Source of the DNA: a virus
DNA length: 44,102 nt
Direction: 5' to 3' (one strand)
UHGV virus genome: UHGV-0016039
The translations under genes were made by a program, and so were the position numbers. A model generated the notes under the pieces. That model was not told the origin of the DNA. It did not search any database and saw only the letters and a list, made by a program, of their open reading frames with translations. This document shows, one piece after another, positions 21 to 43,946 of the stretch. Every line of letters begins with the position of its first letter. The stretch's first letter is position 1.

Positions 21-50
21 TTGACACCCATCCTGCAACCAATCTATCAT
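21..50 (+). promoter_or_regulatory. sigma70-like promoter (TTGACA-18bp-TATCAT); spacer contains TGCAACCAAT motif
   Basis: TTGACA at 21-26, TATCAT at 45-50, 18 bp spacer; upstream T9 run at 1-9. Confidence 0.5.
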
Positions 51-246
51 TCACTCCGTCGACAGGATGCAGGACGCAAACTGGAGAGGGGCAACGCAGG
101 GGCCGGATCGAAGTGTAAGGATTCCCAACCGTGATTATATAACCAGGTCCACTACCCGAACGGGGGAACGCGTAACCTGGCAATATGTTAAGGCCACCGA
201 CGAAGTTAACTGCCGACACCTAAACTTAACCAATCGGAGATATACC

Positions 247-765
247 ATGTTTGAGCAAATCGTAAACCTGATCACTCGCGGCGTAGTAGCACTGGAAACC
301 ATCGCTAAACATTATGAAACCGTCGGCGCTGCCGTTGGTAAGCAGGAAGACAAGAAGCCGTCTAAGTCCAAAAAAGAAGTTGTCGAAGATGACGACGATG
401 ACGCCGAAGACGAAAAACCGGCTAAATCTAAAAAAGCGCCTGCGAAGGGCAAGGCTAAGAAGGAAGTCGTAGAAGATGACGACGATGAAGAAGCCGAAGA
501 CGAAAAACCGGCTAAGTCTAAAAAAGCCCCGGCTAAAGGCAAAGGCAAGAAAGATGCCGATCCGCTGGCGGAGATGCGCGACGAGATCAAACAGTATGCC
601 GCGATTATTGCCGGTGGTGACGACGACGATGCGAACGACGAATTCGACGACCTGCTGGAATCGTTCGAGATCAAATCAATCGCCAAGCTGGAAGATGACG
701 ACGTCGAAGACTTCCACAAAGAGCTAAAAGAAATCGTCGAAACCTATTTCGAACTGGAAGATTAA
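247..765 (+). CDS. acidic, lysine-rich repeat protein (D/E tracts alternating with PAKSKKAPAKGK repeats); candidate early protein
   Basis: ORF track 67..765; ATG at 247 preceded by GGAGA at 236-240 (6 nt spacing); ATG at 67 has no SD; terminator immediately downstream. Confidence 0.55.
   Translation: MFEQIVNLITRGVVALETIAKHYETVGAAVGKQEDKKPSKSKKEVVEDDDDDAEDEKPAKSKKAPAKGKAKKEVVEDDDDEEAEDEKPAKSKKAPAKGKGKKDADPLAEMRDEIKQYAAIIAGGDDDDANDEFDDLLESFEIKSIAKLEDDDVEDFHKELKEIVETYFELED
343..556 (+). repeat. in-frame tandem repeat (~87-90 bp unit, 2 full copies plus a partial) encoding EDDDD-AEDEKPAKSKKAPAKGK
   Basis: near-identical DNA units starting at ~386 and ~473. Confidence 0.7.
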
Positions 766-771
766 TATTAT

Positions 772-800
772 CCGGCCCGCTAATCTGCGGGCCTATTTTT
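772..800 (+). terminator. rho-independent terminator
   Basis: GC stem ccggcccgc/gcgggcc followed by tattttt. Confidence 0.65.
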
Positions 801-813
801 AGAGGACGAGACA

Positions 814-1065
814 ATGGCACGCTTCACGCTAATCGAGGCGGTGGACTCCCGCGACCAGCGCCCATATTATTGGCTATTCGAACGCATCGGCAACTTTCAG
901 TCGCGAGTTGCCGTAATAGATAAACGCCGCAACACACCCGCGCAAATCAAGCGCACCACCTTTACTAATCCCGACTTTTATCTTTGGGCTGATTCCAATC
1001 TGGAATATGTTCGCTTTGCAGTTGCATCCGAAGCAAGAACAATCGACCGCTGGGAGACGAAATAA
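814..1065 (+). CDS. hypothetical protein (83 aa)
   Basis: ORF track; ATG 814 preceded by AGAGGA; TAATG overlap with next gene. Confidence 0.55.
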   Translation: MARFTLIEAVDSRDQRPYYWLFERIGNFQSRVAVIDKRRNTPAQIKRTTFTNPDFYLWADSNLEYVRFAVASEARTIDRWETK

Positions 1066-1247
1066 TGAAATTCTTCGTGCTGGCAACATGCCATAAGACA
1101 AACGACCATTTCTCTTTTCTTGTTATTAACAAGGACGCCTCTATGTGCTGGGTCGATGCGCAGCATGAAGTGCACCGCCGCGTCGAACAGGCGGGAATGG
1201 CTAATATCTGTAAATATGTAATTGTCCAGTTTACAAGGGTGGAATAA
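1065..1247 (+). CDS. hypothetical protein (60 aa)
   Basis: ORF track; TAATG overlaps at both ends (1063-1067, 1245-1249) suggest translational coupling. Confidence 0.45.
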   Translation: MKFFVLATCHKTNDHFSFLVINKDASMCWVDAQHEVHRRVEQAGMANICKYVIVQFTRVE

Positions 1248-2677
1248 TGGCTATTAAACCAAAGCGCAAAACACAATCAGGAAGCAATACAGAACACTCA
1301 TTACTCGGGCCATCGGGATCTAAAAAATGGATGGGGTGTCCCGCCGCCCTGGTGGTCGAAAAAGATATCCCGAACGAATCCGGGCAAGCTGCGATTAACG
1401 GTACGTGTATGCACACTGTATCGGAGGTCGTGCTAAACCGTATTATTGCCGGTGAGAAGCTGATAACCGCGAAGACGTACAAAGGGTGCTACGTCGAGAA
1501 CGAGGGTAAGGGACCAGTAAAGGCCCACCCGAAAGCACCAAAAGGCGGCGTACTGGTCAACGACGATATGGTGAAACAGTGCGATGCGTACATCGACCAC
1601 TGGCGACCACTCCTCGAGGTGGCGGAGTTTGTTCAGCTTGAGATGCGCGCCGATCTGACCCGCGTCCTTCACTCAGGCTACGAGATCGACGGCAACAGGA
1701 TTAAAACGTTCGGTACTGCCGATATGGTCATGGTCATGAAAAAGACCGATGGGACGTACATGCTGATTGTTGGCGACCTGAAGACCGGGCGGCATAAGGT
1801 CGAGGCGAAAGAGAACAAACAGCTTATGTTGTACGCGATCGGACTGCTGCGCAAGCTGCAAACTATGTACGACATTACGACCGTTCGCCTGGTTATCTTC
1901 CAGCCGTATTGCGGCGGGGCGTCGGAGTGGGATATTTCGGTAGAAGCGCTGGAGATATTCGCGAAGTTTGCATCCAAGCGCGCTATTGCCGCACTGGAGG
2001 CGTATTCCCGAGGCAAGAAGGGACTTACCCGTGCCGACTTCCGTCCCAGCGTTGATGCGTGCCAGTGGTGCCGATTTGCGGATCAGTGTAGTGCCCGCGC
2101 TAAGGCCGCAATCGACACGATGACACCTCCAACGGCAACCGACGAAGACCTGGGCGACGACGTGAGCGTGGCGACCGAGGAAGAATGCGCCAATCACGAC
2201 CGCAATATGGTCCGCGAAGCCCGAAAGGCGGCCCGACGTGCGAAGCGTGGCAAGAAAGAAGCTGCCCCCGGCGCTATGAGCGCTGCGGAACTGCGCAAGG
2301 CTTATGAAGGCCTGGACGCAATGCGCCAGCACATCAAAGCTATCGAGTCCGCGGTATTCAAAGCGGTAATGGCGGGCGATGGCGAATCGCTGGGCCTTAA
2401 GATGGTTGCCGGTAAGGAAGGGATCCGTAAGTGGGCGGACGAGAGCGAAGTTATTGAAATCTTCACGAAGGCCCGGATCAAGCGCGATGTGATGTACAAA
2501 GAAACATTGCTCAGCCCTACGGATGCCGAGAAGGTATTGAAGGACGAGAAGCCGAAAGTGTGGGCGAAGCTGTGTGATAAAATCACGCGCGCACCGGCTA
2601 AACCTGTATTAGCACCCATTGACGACCCGCGTCCTGCGTGGTCCGAAGCTACCGACGAGGACTTAAGTAATGAATAA
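1247..2677 (+). CDS. PD-(D/E)XK nuclease, DUF2800/Cas4-like, with C-terminal Cys cluster
   Basis: N-terminal LLGPSGSKKWMGCPAAL, D..K core (IVGDLKTG), CQWCRF..C cluster; position upstream of SSB-like and PolA genes. Confidence 0.75.
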   Translation: MAIKPKRKTQSGSNTEHSLLGPSGSKKWMGCPAALVVEKDIPNESGQAAINGTCMHTVSEVVLNRIIAGEKLITAKTYKGCYVENEGKGPVKAHPKAPKGGVLVNDDMVKQCDAYIDHWRPLLEVAEFVQLEMRADLTRVLHSGYEIDGNRIKTFGTADMVMVMKKTDGTYMLIVGDLKTGRHKVEAKENKQLMLYAIGLLRKLQTMYDITTVRLVIFQPYCGGASEWDISVEALEIFAKFASKRAIAALEAYSRGKKGLTRADFRPSVDACQWCRFADQCSARAKAAIDTMTPPTATDEDLGDDVSVATEEECANHDRNMVREARKAARRAKRGKKEAAPGAMSAAELRKAYEGLDAMRQHIKAIESAVFKAVMAGDGESLGLKMVAGKEGIRKWADESEVIEIFTKARIKRDVMYKETLLSPTDAEKVLKDEKPKVWAKLCDKITRAPAKPVLAPIDDPRPAWSEATDEDLSNE

Positions 2678-2912: not shown

Positions 2913-3002
2913 CCGCTTAGGCGCAACCAAGTAGATTAGCAACCAAGCCGAACGGGGTGGCTTCCAATAACCCCGATACATGTGAAAATGAGGAATTGGA
3001 AA

Positions 3003-3791
3003 ATGGCTAAAGTCAACCTGAAAAATGTGCGCGTATGTTTCCTGAAAATTTGGGAACGTGATACCCCTAAACAGGATGGACAAAAACCGGCATACCGCGC
3101 CGTGATTCTTCTTGATAAAGAAGACCCGCAGGTGGACAAAGTGGAGGCGGCAGCGCGCGCAGTGCTCACCGACAAGCTGAAATCCGAGAAGAATGCCGAT
3201 AAGTGGATGGACCGCCACTACGCCCAGGATTCTAAGGAATGTGCAGTTCGCGACGGCGACGAGCGCGATGAAGTAACCGAAGAGTTCGAAGGCATGTTGT
3301 ACATCAACGCCAAATCGTTCAAACAGCCTAACATCCAAACGTCACTGGGCGAGAAGCAGACCGAGCAAGGTCTGACCGTAGACGGCGACGAGATCGAAGG
3401 CCAGGAGATCTACTCCGGTTGTTATTGCAATGTGTCCCTGGATATTTGGGCGTGGAACAATACCAACGGCAAGGGGCTCGGGGCCGGCTTGCTGGGTCTG
3501 CGATTCCGTGAAGACGGCGAAGCCTTCGGGGGTGGCGGGTCTTCATGTTCTGACGAAGACCTGGACAACGATGACGAAGACGAAAGCCCGCGTAAGTCCA
3601 AAAAGTCAAAACGTCGTGATGACGATGACGAAGACGACAAGCCGCGTAAGTCCAAAAAATCCAAGCGCAGCGATGACGATGACGACGACGACGAAGACGA
3701 AAAGCCTCGCAAACGTCGTAAACCACGCGATGACGAAGATGAGGACGACGAAGACGAAGACGAAGCACCACGCAAACGTCGCCGCCGTTAA
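3003..3791 (+). CDS. DUF2815-type phage ssDNA-binding-like protein with C-terminal D/E-rich and PRKSKK repeat tail
   Basis: ATG 3003 preceded by GAGGAA; N-terminal MAKVNLKNVRV..F motif; gene order DUF2800-DUF2815-PolA. Confidence 0.7.
   Translation: MAKVNLKNVRVCFLKIWERDTPKQDGQKPAYRAVILLDKEDPQVDKVEAAARAVLTDKLKSEKNADKWMDRHYAQDSKECAVRDGDERDEVTEEFEGMLYINAKSFKQPNIQTSLGEKQTEQGLTVDGDEIEGQEIYSGCYCNVSLDIWAWNNTNGKGLGAGLLGLRFREDGEAFGGGGSSCSDEDLDNDDEDESPRKSKKSKRRDDDDEDDKPRKSKKSKRSDDDDDDDEDEKPRKRRKPRDDEDEDDEDEDEAPRKRRRR
3556..3788 (+). repeat. in-frame charged tandem repeats (DDDDEDD-KPRKSKKSKR units) at C-terminus of SSB-like protein
   Basis: repeated gacga(t/c)ga.. and ccgcgtaagtccaaaaa units visible in DNA. 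Confidence 0.65.
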
Positions 3792-3849: not shown

Positions 3850-4020
3850 ATGCGTATTAAAGCCAGCGAAGTAAAAGTCGGAATGCAAGTATGGTCCAAA
3901 TTGCTGGGCGAGTATTTCACCGTTGCCGAGATTCGCAACAACGGCGAGGAGATCACCCTTTCCGACGGTATCTCCTCCATGATCGGCAGCGCTGACGCCG
4001 TAGTGAGGATAAAGCAATGA
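3850..4020 (+). CDS. small hypothetical protein (56 aa), stop overlaps PolA start (ATGA)
   Basis: ATG 3850 to TGA 4018-4020 read by hand; below the ORF-track length cutoff. Confidence 0.35.
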   Translation: MRIKASEVKVGMQVWSKLLGEYFTVAEIRNNGEEITLSDGISSMIGSADAVVRIKQ

Positions 4021-6308
4021 AAGACTTCGAACGCCTATTTCTCGACACAGAGACATTCAGCGATGTGGACCTGAAGAAAGTCGGCGCTTACGCCTACGCA
4101 GAACACCCGTCAACCGAGATTATGATTTGCACCTACGCCATCGACGAGGGCCGCGTGCAGACATGGGACGCCACTGAATCCCCCACGATGCCGCGTGAAC
4201 TACGCAAGGCGCTCCGCCATGTAACCCGCAAAAAAGCAAAAATAGTGATGGCGAACGGCCTCCTGTTTGACCGCCTGGTTATCCGTGAAAAGTGGGGCAT
4301 TGACCTGCCGGTAAGCCAGATCGAAGATACCATGATTATGGCCTTCCGACATGCGCTGCCGGGTGGCCTTGATATGCAATGCCAGGTGCTGGGCGTGGAC
4401 GCAGAGCACGCGAAGGATAAGGCGGGCAAGGCGCTGATTAAACGATTCTGTAAGCCTACCCCTAAGACCTACAAAATCCGCCGCTACACGCGCGAGACTC
4501 ACCCGGAAGAATGGGCTAAATTCCTGCGCTATGCCGCGCTGGATACTATCGCAATGCGTGAAGTCTACTGGCGCATACCGGACTGGGGCAACTCCCCGAA
4601 GGAAGACGAAATCCTGCTTATCGACCAGTTGATTAACGACCGCGGTTTCTATGTGGACGTTGACCTAGCTAACGCCGCGATCAAGGCGGTGCAGGTGCAT
4701 AAAGAAGAATTGAAGGAAGAAGCCTGGGAGCGTTTTGGCGGTAAGCTAACCGGCAACGACTTCCTGCCAATCCTGCGTGATATCGCCCCTGCGTTCACTA
4801 TTCACAACGCGCAGAAATCAACGCTGAATGACTTGCTGGAAGACCCAGACTTCCCCGACGAGGGCAAGGTGCTCATTGAGATGCGCCTCGGTGCGTCATC
4901 AACGGCATCGACTAAGTACAATCCGCTCGTCAATGGCCTGTCCGCCGATGGTCGCCGCCGTGGTTGTCTTCAGTATGGTGGGGCAAAGCGCACGCTACGC
5001 TGGGCCGGTAAAGGCTTTCAACCTCAAAACCTGGCGCGTGGCGAGTACAGCGACGACCACGAAGGGAAGATTAAACGCCGCGAGGGTGAAAGCGACGTCT
5101 CGTTTTGGGTCCGGTCGCACATGCTCACCAACGGCATCAACTCCCTGTTACGCGGGACCGCACACTGGGCGTATGACATATCGAAGCTAACGGCATCGAC
5201 CGTTCGCGGGTGCATTATTCCTGCGAAGGGTAAGAAGTTTGTCGTAGCGGACTACTCCAACGTGGAAGGGCGTGGCCTTGCCTGGATCGCTGGCGAGAAA
5301 ACAGCGCTCATGGTGTTTAAGGCCGGTCGCGATATCTATTGTGAGACTGCCGGTAAGATGTTCGGCCTGGACCCGGACTACATTAAAGCCAACCGCAAGG
5401 ACTTACGCCAGATCGGTAAGGCGTGCGAATTGGGACTGGGCTATGGTGGCGGCGTCGCGGCGTTCTTGCAGTTCGCTAAAAACCTGGGCCTCGACCTTTA
5501 CACTATGGCGGACGTGATGAAAGGCACGTTCCCGGATCACATTTGGGCGGCGGCGAAACGTGGTTATGAGTACGCTCGCATTAACGAAGCGAAGCGCCCG
5601 CCGAAGCCGGGCAAGAAGGACGAGCGCCCAACATACATACTGCCGAAAAACGTATGGCTTACTTGTGACGCAATCAAACGTATGTGGCGTGAGGCTCACC
5701 CGAAGACGGTAGCCTTTTGGGCCGAGCTTGAGGACGCTGTGTTGTGTGCAATCCGCAATCCGGGCAAAGCATACTGGGCTGGCGCGAACGTTCGCCCGGA
5801 CGGTAGAAAAGCGCTCAAGATTGTCCGTACGAAGGCGAAGCACGACCCAACCTTTGACGAGGAGCGCGACGACCCGAACGCCGCGGGGTGGTGGTTGAAA
5901 ATTGAGTTGCCGTCGGGGCGCATCATGAGCTACCCCGGCATCGCGCTGTCTGTCACGACCGAGATTGACGAAGACACCGGCAAGAAGCGCACCAGCACAC
6001 GCATTAAATATCAGGGCGAGAATCAGACGACGCGCCAGTGGGGATTCCAGTATACCTACGGCGGCAAACTGACGGAGAACATCGTACAGGCGTTGTGCCG
6101 CGATATTCTCGCATGGTCCATGCCTGGCGTTGAAGCTGCGGGGTATAAAATCGTCCTGTCGGTGCATGATGAATTGATCACAGAAGTGCCGGACACCGAC
6201 GACTACACTACCGAGGAACTTTGCGCGCTGATGTGCGACCTGCCTATTTGGGCGAAGGGCTTCCCACTTGCCGCCGAAGGCGACATCATGTACAGGTACA
6301 GGAAGTAA
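4017..6308 (+). CDS. DNA polymerase, family A, with 3'-5' exonuclease domain
   Basis: N-terminal LFLDTETFS exo motif; RQIGKACELGLGYGGG (motif B K...YG); VHDELITEV (motif C). Confidence 0.92.
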   Translation: MKDFERLFLDTETFSDVDLKKVGAYAYAEHPSTEIMICTYAIDEGRVQTWDATESPTMPRELRKALRHVTRKKAKIVMANGLLFDRLVIREKWGIDLPVSQIEDTMIMAFRHALPGGLDMQCQVLGVDAEHAKDKAGKALIKRFCKPTPKTYKIRRYTRETHPEEWAKFLRYAALDTIAMREVYWRIPDWGNSPKEDEILLIDQLINDRGFYVDVDLANAAIKAVQVHKEELKEEAWERFGGKLTGNDFLPILRDIAPAFTIHNAQKSTLNDLLEDPDFPDEGKVLIEMRLGASSTASTKYNPLVNGLSADGRRRGCLQYGGAKRTLRWAGKGFQPQNLARGEYSDDHEGKIKRREGESDVSFWVRSHMLTNGINSLLRGTAHWAYDISKLTASTVRGCIIPAKGKKFVVADYSNVEGRGLAWIAGEKTALMVFKAGRDIYCETAGKMFGLDPDYIKANRKDLRQIGKACELGLGYGGGVAAFLQFAKNLGLDLYTMADVMKGTFPDHIWAAAKRGYEYARINEAKRPPKPGKKDERPTYILPKNVWLTCDAIKRMWREAHPKTVAFWAELEDAVLCAIRNPGKAYWAGANVRPDGRKALKIVRTKAKHDPTFDEERDDPNAAGWWLKIELPSGRIMSYPGIALSVTTEIDEDTGKKRTSTRIKYQGENQTTRQWGFQYTYGGKLTENIVQALCRDILAWSMPGVEAAGYKIVLSVHDELITEVPDTDDYTTEELCALMCDLPIWAKGFPLAAEGDIMYRYRK

Positions 6309-41341: not shown

Positions 41342-43606
41342 TTAGTCTTTTAAGTCGTCATCGGTCGCAGAAAGCGTGGTGGGTATATTCGTTTTGATGA
41401 CGATATTCGACGACCCATAGATGGCCCCGGTGTGTGGGTCTGTATAAAAGCCGAGTACGCCGCGCTCCACCATATCGTCGATTGCCTTCGTCGATGTGCC
41501 ACCTTTTGCCAATCCCGCCTGGCGGACAATTGCCGATTTACTGAATCCGGTATGGTCCGGGTTATCTTCCATCAGTTTTTCCAGCGCCGCATAAAGCACT
41601 TTCTCTTTTTCGTTGCGCGGGCCTGCGGCGTTCTCGTCCTTAACTGCTGCCTTGCCCGCGGACTTCGCCTGCTCAATGGCGAACGGTGCCAGGGCAACTG
41701 GTACGAGGTAGAGAGTCTCGTCGCGTGGCGTGGATGCGATTGGCTTGACGTCCCAACCGGCAACCACATCGCCGAAGTCCGGCCCGGTGCTGGTGGACTG
41801 GTGGGCTTCGAACGCTTCGGACTTGCGGAGATCCACCTTAACCTTGCACTTGAGCAGGACGAAGCCGCGTGGCGCTTGCTTGATGCCGTTACGTGCCTTT
41901 TCGTGATACAGGTTCAATTGGCCTGGTTGGTTGTCGTCCGGCTGTTCCAGGAAGAACGCGGAATCAACAGCACCATGAAGCGCGCCGGACCCGCGTGGCG
42001 TTCTGCTGCCGTTTGCACCTTTCGCCGGGTGGTGGATGACGCCCGCACTGCCGCCTGTATTTTCCGCAATGGCTTTCAGCGCTTTGACCACTTCACCCAT
42101 ATCGCTGGCGTTGTTCTCGTCAAACGGTTTAGCATCGGCGGACCGCAGCGCAACAGTCTGGTTGAGGGAGTCGAACGCCACCAGGCCCACCGGTTCGCCG
42201 TTAGCGGTGCGGTTGATGAAGCTGATAACTTCACGCAAGCCGGATTTGCTGGTGATATCCCAGCCGCGAGATTGCAGGTCGATAATGTGCAGCTTGTCCA
42301 GGTCGTGCTCATATTTGATCTGCAGTGCTTCCTTACGCTGGTTGGAGGCTTCGCCACCTTCCGCATCGAAATAGAAGTTGTGGCACTGGACGACCTTCGC
42401 CCCGCCAAACGGAATACCGGCAGATACTGACGCCATCTGGCCCAGCACGTAGAACGACTTGCCGATGTTCGACTCACCGGCGAGATACCAGGTCGATTTG
42501 AAGTTGACCAGGCCTTCGATGATCGGGTCGTGCTTACTGAACAGTGCGACCGGCTCGTTGTCCAGGTCTGCATCAGTACACACGCCGTACTCGTCGCCGT
42601 CGCCAACCGCATCAACGATATGTTCATAGCAGGATTCCACTTCCTCGTCGTCCAGTCCCGGAAGGATGGCGGCGATTTGCTTACGTGACATGTTGTGCGG
42701 TTCGACGTTCAGGTGGTCCGGGATCCCGATAAGACGTAGCGCCAGGTGCTGGTGTCTGTTCAGTTCGGAACAGCACTCGTTTCCGGTGTGCATACACTTG
42801 AAACGGATCTCGCCATCCTTGACCATGATAGCGGTGGACCCTTCGCCGCTGTGCAGGTGTTCGTTCGGGCACGGCACTTCATAGCCCCGACCGGACGACA
42901 GCGGTTCGAATCCTGCCTTGAAGCACCAATCCAGAATACCGTCCGCCACGCCGTCATCGCCCTGGGTCAGTTCGCGGCGGACTTCCTCTTTCTCAACTCC
43001 CAGCTTGTCCGCCAGGCGGAGCAGACGGCGGACGCGGGCGCGCTTGCCGTAGTGGCACTTAATAACAGACTGCTGGTGTGGCAGGTACATCAGGCGGTTT
43101 GTGTCTTTCGTGCAGTCGTCGAAGTCCACATCTGACAGGCCCAGTTGGTGTAATAGCGCATACTGGACACGCCCCAGGTCTTCAGCCGGTACAGGCTTGT
43201 CGGTCAACACCAGGAAGCGAGCGCAACGCGTTCCACCTTTCAGTGGGTGACGGTCGCCGGTTGTGGTGTGAAATACGTGTTCCAGACCCGAGTCAATGAA
43301 CGCCTTACGGCAGCGGCGTAGGGTGCGGGTGTCGGTACGGTCAATATCGAAGAACAGGATCGAGCGGTCCACCGCGCTGGTCTTGCGACGTAAGCCGTCA
43401 CTGGTATAAGCCACAATGCCATCGGCCTTACGCTTGCGGCGCGCATACTCCGCTTTATCTTCCGTCTTGTTGATATGCACCGAGGATATTTCTTTCGCAT
43501 CATTAATAAATTCGAAAAACTCATCAGTGGTCATCTGGAAGTTTTCCGCCCTGGCTTTTTCGCCTTTTTTAGCGGGTCTTGTTACTGCGAATTTAATTAA
43601 GCTCAT
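41342..43606 (-). CDS. DNA primase / RecA-like (DnaB/RepA-type) helicase fusion protein
   Basis: Walker A AGESNIGKS, Walker B-like VAFDSLNQ, Cys/His cluster, 754 aa. Confidence 0.8.
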   Translation of the reverse strand: MSLIKFAVTRPAKKGEKARAENFQMTTDEFFEFINDAKEISSVHINKTEDKAEYARRKRKADGIVAYTSDGLRRKTSAVDRSILFFDIDRTDTRTLRRCRKAFIDSGLEHVFHTTTGDRHPLKGGTRCARFLVLTDKPVPAEDLGRVQYALLHQLGLSDVDFDDCTKDTNRLMYLPHQQSVIKCHYGKRARVRRLLRLADKLGVEKEEVRRELTQGDDGVADGILDWCFKAGFEPLSSGRGYEVPCPNEHLHSGEGSTAIMVKDGEIRFKCMHTGNECCSELNRHQHLALRLIGIPDHLNVEPHNMSRKQIAAILPGLDDEEVESCYEHIVDAVGDGDEYGVCTDADLDNEPVALFSKHDPIIEGLVNFKSTWYLAGESNIGKSFYVLGQMASVSAGIPFGGAKVVQCHNFYFDAEGGEASNQRKEALQIKYEHDLDKLHIIDLQSRGWDITSKSGLREVISFINRTANGEPVGLVAFDSLNQTVALRSADAKPFDENNASDMGEVVKALKAIAENTGGSAGVIHHPAKGANGSRTPRGSGALHGAVDSAFFLEQPDDNQPGQLNLYHEKARNGIKQAPRGFVLLKCKVKVDLRKSEAFEAHQSTSTGPDFGDVVAGWDVKPIASTPRDETLYLVPVALAPFAIEQAKSAGKAAVKDENAAGPRNEKEKVLYAALEKLMEDNPDHTGFSKSAIVRQAGLAKGGTSTKAIDDMVERGVLGFYTDPHTGAIYGSSNIVIKTNIPTTLSATDDDLKD

Positions 43607-43616
43607 TGCCGTGGCC

Positions 43617-43946
43617 TTACTTAAAAGTTTTATTATTGCGTACCCAGGAGCGCACTGTGCTCTGATTAATTCCGGTCAACTCGGCAATCATCGCCCACGA
43701 TTTTCCCTCGTCGCGCAAACGTATAACCTGCTTTTTGTATTCTTCCATTTCTTCATTGTGCTTTTGCAGCTTGCTCGCGGCCGTGCCGTTGAGCAATTCC
43801 AGCCTGGCGCGTAATTCTTTCTCGACACTGCGCAGTCGTTCGATTTCAAATAACACCGCCCCCACGGCATCTGTATAAGCCCATGACCGGCTTGTCTCAC
43901 TGCAAACAGTCTTCGTTAACATTTCGATTGCGCCGTTTACATTCAT
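43617..43946 (-). CDS. HTH DNA-binding protein (109 aa)
   Basis: C-terminal HTH-like WAMIAELTGINQSTVRSWVRNN; ATG 43946 with GAGGG. Confidence 0.55.
   Translation of the reverse strand: MNVNGAIEMLTKTVCSETSRSWAYTDAVGAVLFEIERLRSVEKELRARLELLNGTAASKLQKHNEEMEEYKKQVIRLRDEGKSWAMIAELTGINQSTVRSWVRNNKTFK

Follow-up and report, generated by a model that had tools for sequence, protein, structure and literature searches.

A strongly acidic protein held in the replication module of Dhillonvirus and Guernseyvirinae phages, a candidate accessory factor of phage DNA replication

Small acidic proteins are known from several phage systems. Ocr (T7 gp0.3) and ArdA are small, helical, very acidic and strongly expressed proteins of phages or plasmids, and DNA mimics are not known to share a fold. 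Beside exonuclease and annealing-protein genes, small acidic proteins are encoded in T7 (gp5.9) and lambda (Gam). Both are RecBCD inhibitors within replication/recombination modules, and in lambda gam-bet-exo the inhibitor gene lies beside those for the exonuclease and the annealing protein. Acidic, aromatic-ended tips are also found on the tails of T7 gp2.5 and E. coli SSB. In T7 gp2.5, Enc34 ORF6 and bacterial SSBs the tail is a disordered segment followed by an acidic end with an aromatic residue, the phage proteins belonging to T7-like replication modules, and for the acidic tails of the Enc34 and T7 SSBs contacts with polymerase and helicase, as well as competition with DNA at basic surfaces, have been proposed (PMC5686142). 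Enc34, of the Casjensviridae (Chi-like phages), has a regulator and a primase gene reading divergently from ORF3, ORF4, exonuclease, SSB and polymerase, and in its ORF3 a Lys/Thr-rich linker joins an N-terminal helix to a helical, acidic-ended C-terminal domain.

The protein described here is encoded in UHGV-0016039, analysed over its full 44,102 bp (the window), the complete genome of a Dhillonvirus, an HK578/SO-1-like siphovirus of E. coli and Shigella. The first 3 kb are about 93 % identical to StarDew, ZCEC10-12 and others. From base 1 the plus strand carries the acidic-protein gene, two small ORFs, and the genes for exonuclease, SSB and DNA polymerase I, and the helicase-primase and HTH genes form the divergent operon (Table 1). 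The names 'transposase' and 'Gam' that have been propagated for the HTH gene are uninformative. We consider the acidic protein to be, with a probability of roughly 40 %, a non-enzymatic, abundant accessory protein of the phage DNA replication/recombination module, the acidic head of which would act as an electrostatic adaptor.

Table 1 Features of the window that bear on the acidic-protein gene
Feature	Position	Strand	Remarks
Sigma-70-type promoter	21..50	+	TTGACA, 18 nt spacer, TATCAT; 11/12 matches; rightward replication/recombination operon
Structured RNA element	58..217	+	about 160 nt, in the 5' leader; independent of the protein family; present in some Dhillonviruses, absent from others
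Ribosome-binding site	236..240	+	GGAGA, 6 nt before ATG 247; conserved in 8/8 aligned genomes
CDS of the acidic protein	247..765	+	172 aa (phrog_3127); ATG 247, stop TAA 763-765
N-terminal amphipathic helix	247..324	+	residues 1-26; AF2 helix 2-26, pLDDT 56-65
Disordered linker	325..558	+	residues 27-104; acidic blocks alternate with basic ones; carries the KSKK and D-rich repeats; pLDDT <50 for residues 23-100
90-nt tandem repeat	369..551	+	2.1 copies by repeat detection; encodes EVVEDDDD..AEDEKPAKSKKAPAKGK(A/G)KK
C-terminal acidic three-helix bundle	559..762	+	residues 105-172; net charge -20; AF2 helices 106-123, 127-139 and 150-168, pLDDT 84-92
Intrinsic terminator-like hairpin	774..803	+	GGCCCGC, loop, GCGGGCC (7-bp all-G+C stem) and T-run; separates the gene from the rest of the operon
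DUF2800 / PD-(D/E)XK (Cas4-like) exonuclease	1247..2677	+	syntenic across all loci
gp2.5/Enc34-type SSB	2982..3791	+	real start probably ATG 3003
DNA polymerase I	4017..6308	+	
Helicase-primase (AAA_25)	41342..43606	-	part of divergent operon 41342..43946
HTH protein (HTH_23/HTH_28)	43617..43946	-	part of divergent operon 41342..43946

The preliminary description had placed the gene directly downstream of the leftmost promoter. A sigma-70-type promoter is present and its -35 and -10 hexamers are conserved in eight Dhillonviruses, including two without the leader insert, but a leader of about 190 nt lies between it and ATG 247. Because the record was opened inside the divergent intergenic region, 'leftmost promoter' and 'first gene' reflect only the cut point of the record and no physical end. 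A cos end near the gene was considered and rejected: the cos of Dhillonvirus EE09, ATCTTAAGGG, has no exact match in the window, and its two one-mismatch matches are at chance level. The PhageTerm call for EE09 lies within the tail genes. The same description had reported a terminator after the gene, and this was borne out by a hairpin with a T-run, the stem of which is kept and the loop of which is variable across eight Dhillonvirus genomes. A hairpin with a T-run was found after 19 of 72 family genes, largely confined to Dhillonvirus.

Several GenBank records begin the gene at the in-frame ATG 67, giving a protein of 232 aa (range 207-239 aa). This upstream start was rejected, since bases 63-213 are absent from the Dhillonviruses LM40P1 and 'rolling', in which the promoter, the ribosome-binding site and ATG 247 are retained; the difference is an indel in the leader. 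The widespread mis-annotation of the start codon is thus corrected from 232 to 172 aa.

The gene is real, as is evident from its ribosome-binding site, from purifying selection and from the detection of an orthologue by mass spectrometry. Selection is strong: in 21 Dhillonvirus genes pN/pS was 0.135 for the N-terminal helix and 0.058 for the C-terminal domain. In cells infected with EE09 only four phage proteins were detected by mass spectrometry at 25 min, CDS56 and CDS61 among them (PMC10673088). CDS56 measures 699 nt when counted from the upstream ATG, follows the 'transposase' HTH gene and precedes genes of 252, 189 and 1434 nt. On these criteria of position and length it corresponds to the acidic protein, and CDS61 (801 nt) corresponds to the SSB by the same comparison of position and gene lengths. 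A strong promoter, together with a terminator directly after the gene, fits a high expression of the acidic protein compared to the downstream enzymes in Dhillonvirus.

The leader contains an RNA element with an occurrence of its own. Outside Dhillonvirus, homologous copies were seen in Drexlerviridae (slyngel and other Hanrivervirus), HeidiAbel Bas97 and Sortsnevirus-like phages. There they occupy intergenic gaps of about 130-240 nt away from the acidic-protein gene, and their orientation is always that of the flanking genes. As RNAalifold on a MAFFT alignment misaligned the variable helices, these were checked by anchoring on the conserved blocks that flank them. Compensatory changes were observed in helices P5, P6, P4 and P1. 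In P5 the pairs were CCAGG/CCUGG, CCUGG/CCAGG, CCCGG/CCGGG, CUAUC/GAUAG, CGCAC/GUGCG, CAUUGG/CCAAUG and CGCUGG/CCAGUG, and in P6 the hairpins were CCC-GAAC-GGG, GCC-ACCA-GGC, CCG-GAAA-CGG and GCC-GCAA-GGC; the changes in P4 and in the closing helix P1 were consistent with pairing. Cognate P4/P5 strands averaged -10.4 kcal/mol compared to -5.5 between groups, whereas P1 was weakly or not discriminated by the same control. Single-sequence folding of the leader gave no unusual stability (z=+0.87), and in a search of Rfam 15 (E up to 1) with four phage contexts no family matched the element. It had no match in E. coli genomes, and its core 17-mer matched GTDB genomes 36 times, compared to about 70 matches expected by chance, with no sign of the element in bacterial genomes.

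The 172-aa protein contains 53 D/E (30.8 %) and 30 K/R residues (17.4 %) and has a pI of 4.46 and a net charge of -23. Its description as strongly acidic, with D/E runs alternating with KSKK repeats, was therefore correct, and the motifs quoted are present: EDDDDDAEDE at residues 47-56, PAKSKKAPAKGK at 58-69 and again at 88-99, and GGDDDDANDEFDD at 123-135. Alignments of 24, 59 and 36 homologues and two AlphaFold2 (AF2) models all agreed on an architecture of N-terminal helix, linker and C-terminal domain, which is common to the 24 full-length members examined, a few of them with a duplicated C-terminal domain. The helix, which AF2 predicts with moderate confidence at best, has a continuous hydrophobic stripe and the family consensus ML(E/D)KFLxLLERFVVAHELIAANS, in which R11, V13, A15, E17 and A20 are invariant. 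In the AF2 model of a natural short variant (115 aa) the pLDDT of the helix was about 50 and the pTM 0.49, and no docking of the helix onto the bundle was supported.

The linker is the changeable part of the protein. In 21 Dhillonvirus genes it varies by whole repeat units, one copy giving 142 aa and two copies about 172 aa, and in some metagenomic variants of 115-124 aa it is almost wholly lost (family proteins in the alignment are 115-180 aa). Residues 32-104 carry a net charge of -2 and are thus about neutral, and across 72 family members the net charge between residue 26 and the C-terminal domain ranges from -15 to +5, neutral to negative in nearly all. The preliminary description had seen in the repeats a histone-H1-like, possibly nucleoid-interacting factor, and Lys/Ala/Pro-rich repeats are indeed a feature of H1-type tails and of bacterial tails of the HupB/AlgP type, which the PAKSKKAPAKGK repeats resemble; basic patches are also present in the linker of all family members. 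The KSKK repeats are, however, the least conserved part of the protein, and a conserved net-basic repeat region was not found in the family, the region ranging from nearly absent to about 80 residues. Repeats that occur in one, two or nearly no copies, in a linker close to neutral charge, argue against both a nucleoid-binding role and a conserved DNA-binding repeat, and the net charge of -23 of the whole protein likewise speaks against stable DNA binding. We regard a nucleoid-associated protein that binds DNA through these repeats as highly improbable.

The C-terminal domain has 26 acidic and 6 basic residues in 68 and, like Ocr, a high density of surface carboxylates. All 72 distinct family members have a net negative domain (-7 to -21) and, within the last eight residues, an aromatic residue or pair (YF, YY, FY), which in 71 of them is followed by an acidic end. 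Typical tips are YFELED, KYYELED, EEFYDAE and NKYFEEE, the window protein ending in ...ETYFELED; the lone exception terminates in YF. A conserved acidic C-terminus with an aromatic residue after a disordered segment, as in SSB-type tips, is therefore found in this family. As modelled, the domain appears to be a generic three-helix bundle without a diagnostic homologue.

Homology searches assigned the protein to a family but to no function. The profile of phrog_3127, a function-unassigned family of PHROGs, was matched over its full length, residues 1-172 aligning with positions 1-178 of 178 (E=1.9e-53). Among 1.84 billion representative proteins a profile of the C-terminal domain found only 39, of which 32 were 115-212 aa long; the remaining matches, of 31-89 aa, look like fragments. 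Pfam, PADLOC and NCBI-style scans with the protein and 59 family members (Pfam E up to 1) gave only sub-threshold compositional matches (BUD22, DUF6669, DDRGK, Sigma70_ner), and a PDB profile search gave a sole compositional match to a nucleoplasmin acidic/basic tail (E=6). BFVD returned family members only, including Gp46 of Edwardsiella phage eiAU, the '13.88 kDa late protein' of Salmonella phage MB78 and a protein of St162. The eiAU and MB78 (UniProt Q9T1Z8) proteins are the named members of phrog_3127. The MB78 name has been copied onto Jerseyvirus homologues with the same gene order, but 'late protein' is a legacy label only and the propagated name is uninformative. Within phrog_3127 the charged linker is longest and most repetitive in the Dhillonvirus version, whose C-terminal domain is also the most acidic. 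Two described proteins were considered as identities and rejected: Ksap1, the trigger of KpAvs2 (PMC11564622), and the anti-Tmn protein ORF35 (PMC11846954), the described residues and folds of which are unlike those of the acidic protein.

The genomic context is the strongest line of evidence on the acidic protein. The order helicase-primase, acidic-protein gene, (orf83), DUF2800 exonuclease, SSB and Pol I was found in 61 of 61 loci retrieved with the protein, all of them viral contigs of 40-47 kb, a homologue of orf83 being often but not always present. This order is kept even where the helicases are about 30 % and the exonucleases about 45 % identical. When the search was reversed and started from the SSB, 80 loci were obtained, of which 72 had enough upstream DNA, and the gene was present in all 72 and lacking in none. 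The module is common to Dhillonvirus, Guernseyvirinae (Jerseyvirus, Kagunavirus), Sortsnevirus-like and related 40-47 kb siphoviruses. Since the gene is never lost from the module at such depth, it behaves as a core module gene rather than as an accessory anti-defence gene. It had been proposed from the early position of the gene that the product is an anti-restriction protein. This reasoning does not hold: the gene is fixed in the replication module, and in the most distant group, the Jerseyvirus-like phages, a co-directional helicase gene lies upstream, so that the acidic-protein gene is not the first of the operon.

Its constant immediate neighbour is the helicase-primase gene, divergent in Dhillonvirus and directly upstream in Jerseyvirus-like phages. 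This adjacency, and a protein that is small, acidic and half disordered, would suit a role in helicase loading or primosome organisation, in which the protein brings the replicative helicase-primase to DNA as SPP1 G39P does; G39P is itself small, acidic and partly unfolded. No sequence similarity to any loader in the PDB was found, however, and a high abundance is more in keeping with stoichiometric binding than with catalytic loading. Helicase-primases fused in this way are also generally regarded as self-loading, and a loader function seems improbable to us.

The position of the gene also bears on whether the protein could bind the host RNA polymerase or a sigma factor and redirect transcription to phage promoters, in the manner of sigma-70 region 1.1, T7 Gp2 or T4 AsiA/gp33. 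In Dhillonvirus no other gene comes between it and a strong sigma-70 promoter, and its product has an acidic helical bundle; there were weak, sub-threshold compositional matches to the sigma-70 non-essential region and a Foldseek match to the RNA polymerase beta-flap chain of a T4 gp33 complex (E=2.4). All these matches are insignificant, the gene belongs to the replication and not to a regulatory module, and it is not promoter-proximal in the Jerseyvirus-like relatives, which makes such a regulator very doubtful. The loader, RNA-polymerase-binding and H1-like roles are progressively less supported, in that order.

The foremost alternative is that the acidic bundle imitates DNA and blocks RecBCD or a type I restriction enzyme, protecting the linear replicating phage DNA. 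The C-terminal domain, with its 26 D/E residues in 68 and net charge of -20, would suit nucleic-acid mimicry, and its charge density lies above that of typical DNA mimics. The protein is promoter-proximal and abundant, its gene adjoins those for an exonuclease and a gp2.5-type annealing protein, like lambda gam-bet-exo, and a RecBCD inhibitor could itself be a conserved core gene. The Ocr/ArdA-like form of this idea fared less well, as searches of Pfam, PADLOC and the PDB and the Foldseek/BFVD fold searches linked the protein neither by sequence nor by fold to Ocr, ArdA, Gam, gp5.9 or any solved structure. Structure prediction, proposed earlier as a check, gave the AF2 three-helix bundle, for which no fold similarity to DNA mimics was found. 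Given that DNA mimics lack a common fold, the C-terminal domain may be a mimic even without fold matches. The acidic protein is, however, absent among the Dhillonvirus anti-defence or trigger genes of PMC11846954, PMC11564622, the escape screen of 10.1101/2022.08.27.505566 and the RAZR study PMC13017515. An invariant N-terminal helix and strict co-inheritance with the module are also foreign to known DNA mimics. It seems to us that a mimic has a real though minor chance of being correct, and overall the interpretation as an Ocr/ArdA-like protein or nucleoid factor is partly supported. Should the protein be a DNA mimic, it would represent a new fold class of these.

The SSB encoded in the same module has an unusual tail. 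In every phage group examined an Arg-rich basic block lies at, or at most 6 residues from, the C-terminus, with tips such as APRKRRRR, ERPRRRRR and APRRERRRR (tails ...DEDEAPRKRRRR, ...EEEERPRRRRR and ...EDEAPRRERRRR). The window SSB tail contains D-rich/KPRKSKKSKR repeats before its Arg-rich tip ...DEDEAPRKRRRR. In Dhillonvirus the module ED(E/D)KP(A/R)KSKK recurs in the linker and in the SSB tail, which show 46 % amino acid identity across 72 residues and 77 % nucleotide identity across 74 nt; as the sequence is of low complexity, the similarity need not reflect common descent. From the Arg-rich SSB tips, the universally acidic and aromatic-ended C-terminal domain and the shared linker/SSB-tail module we infer an electrostatic adaptor role for the acidic protein.

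According to this proposal, the acidic head, being nucleic-acid-like or SSB-tail-like, would bind a basic surface of the replication machinery, most plausibly the C-terminus of the co-encoded gp2.5-type SSB, where in these phages an Arg-rich tip replaces the canonical acidic one. The acidic 'tail' function, which T7 gp2.5 and bacterial SSBs carry in cis, would then be supplied in trans by the phage. The N-terminal helix may dock on another replisome component (helicase-primase, polymerase or exonuclease) or self-associate, and the linker would be an expendable disordered spacer, its length set by gain and loss of tandem repeats. In Dhillonvirus, the strong promoter and the terminator would let the acidic protein accumulate far beyond the downstream enzymes. 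Its co-occurrence with a basic-tipped SSB comes from one related phage supergroup with about five sub-lineages and is not phylogenetically independent. Enc34-type phages, which have an acidic SSB tail, carry ORF3, of similar layout, at the same position, so a gene of this kind may do without a basic SSB tip. A DNA-binding protein of the host is an equally conceivable target of the acidic protein. A further extension of the adaptor proposal is that the acidic protein and the 'charge-inverted' SSB, with its acidic blocks and Arg-rich tip, are a charge-complementary pair that organises replication by multivalent electrostatic assembly of matching disordered segments, up to a condensate-like compartment, tuned by repeat copy number; we give this only a slim chance.

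Dhillonviruses and Guernseyvirinae (Jerseyvirus, Kagunavirus) rank with the commonest isolates of coliphage and Salmonella phage, and therapy and biocontrol work makes use of them. Replication proteins of such phages are sensed by defence systems, the SSB by Retron-Eco8 and Hachiman and the polymerase by Borvo (10.1101/2022.08.27.505566). A universally conserved, abundant and uncharacterised component of the replication module, beside an SSB of reversed tail chemistry, raises the concrete question of how T7-type replisomes are wired in these phages.

Compared to the described systems, the acidic protein differs from each in a particular way. It belongs to no Pfam family and has no PDB sequence match that would connect it to Ocr, and its model lacks the elongated, all-helical fold of that bent-B-DNA mimic. 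Likewise, neither a Pfam or PADLOC match to ArdA nor the three-domain ArdA fold was found. Half of the acidic protein is disordered, with basic blocks, and its gene is fixed in the replication module, unlike the leading-end or accessory genes of Ocr and ArdA. With T7 gp5.9 and lambda Gam it shares the neighbourhood but neither sequence nor fold, and its succession of N-terminal helix, disordered linker and three-helix bundle sets it apart. Enc34 ORF3 resembles it in layout and gene order, but the C-terminal domain of ORF3 is only mildly acidic and the Enc34 SSB tail is conventionally acidic. Homology with ORF3 was not supported, the hhalign probability being 9.7 % and confined to the N-terminal helix. 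In the acidic SSB tails the acidic element is the end of the SSB itself, whereas here a separate polypeptide, which also has an N-terminal helix, supplies it as a folded three-helix bundle, and the tip of the co-encoded SSB is Arg-rich. A functional link between the acidic protein and these SSB-tail systems is proposed.

The 5' leader of the acidic-protein gene contains an RNA element, structured and about 160 nt long, which looks like an undescribed phage RNA motif. Its conserved blocks are GGAGAGGNGCAACGCAGGGGC, GAUCGAAGUGUCAGGAUUCCCAACCGUGA, ACACU, AGAACGC and GAGGCYRCCGACGAAG, and covariation was found in helices P5, P6, P4 and P1, the last of which was at best weakly discriminated in the pairing control. 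A search of Rfam with the element gave no match, and it was not found in the E. coli genomes searched. It is also present in unrelated phages (Drexlerviridae, HeidiAbel Bas97 and Sortsnevirus-like phages), while some Dhillonviruses are without it; possibly it is a mobile phage motif.

In several GenBank and RefSeq Dhillonvirus records an in-frame ATG upstream of the real start was chosen as the start codon of the acidic-protein gene, giving proteins of 207-239 aa, and these extended gene models read across the RNA element. That the extension is coding was ruled out by an indel in phages LM40P1 and 'rolling'. Public records also give the divergently transcribed 109-aa gene the names 'transposase' or 'DNA recombination nuclease inhibitor gamma', both of which look like annotation errors. 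Its product is an HTH_23/HTH_28/sigma-70-region-4-like DNA-binding protein, and probably serves the divergent promoter region, either as its regulator or as an origin-binding protein.

Features discussed, with their coordinates (L001, L003 and L005, database Dhillonvirus records; L210, Hafnia phage Enc34)
Feature	Sequence	Coordinates	Strand	Remark
Structured RNA element	window	58-217	+	in 5' leader
Upstream extension	window	67-246	+	from public records
Records with upstream start	L001	4047-4673
	L003	667-1275
	L005	666-1388
orf83	window	814-1065	+	phrog_4965
orf60	window	1065-1247	+	phrog_9934
SSB, gp2.5/Enc34-type	window	2982-3791	+	tail ~3540-3791
54-nt tandem repeat	window	3568-3692		in SSB tail
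HTH gene	window	43617-43946	-	109 aa
Enc34 ORF3	L210	3681-4055

Two small ORFs, orf83 and orf60, are located between the terminator and the exonuclease gene. Many distant relatives have a homologue of orf83 (27-35 % identity) in this place, and therefore orf83 may be a second conserved uncharacterised gene of the replication/recombination module. In the tail of the SSB, KPRKSKKSKR repeats alternate with D-rich blocks, and the module ED(E/D)KP(A/R)KSKK is common to the tail repeats and the linker of the acidic protein. The C-terminal tip is Arg-rich (APRKRRRR), in contrast to the canonical acidic tip, and an Arg-rich block was found at the SSB C-terminus or at most 6 residues from it in all related phage groups examined.

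Chi-like/Enc34-like phages encode a protein of 124-135 aa, represented by ORF3 of Hafnia phage Enc34, at the equivalent position of the module. The name 'RecT protein', under which it appears in some UniRef entries, is implausible for a protein of this size. Sequence comparison did not demonstrate homology between the ORF3 type and the acidic family. The layout of the ORF3-type proteins, with an N-terminal helix, a Lys/Thr-rich linker and a helical C-terminal domain with an acidic end, resembles that of the acidic family.
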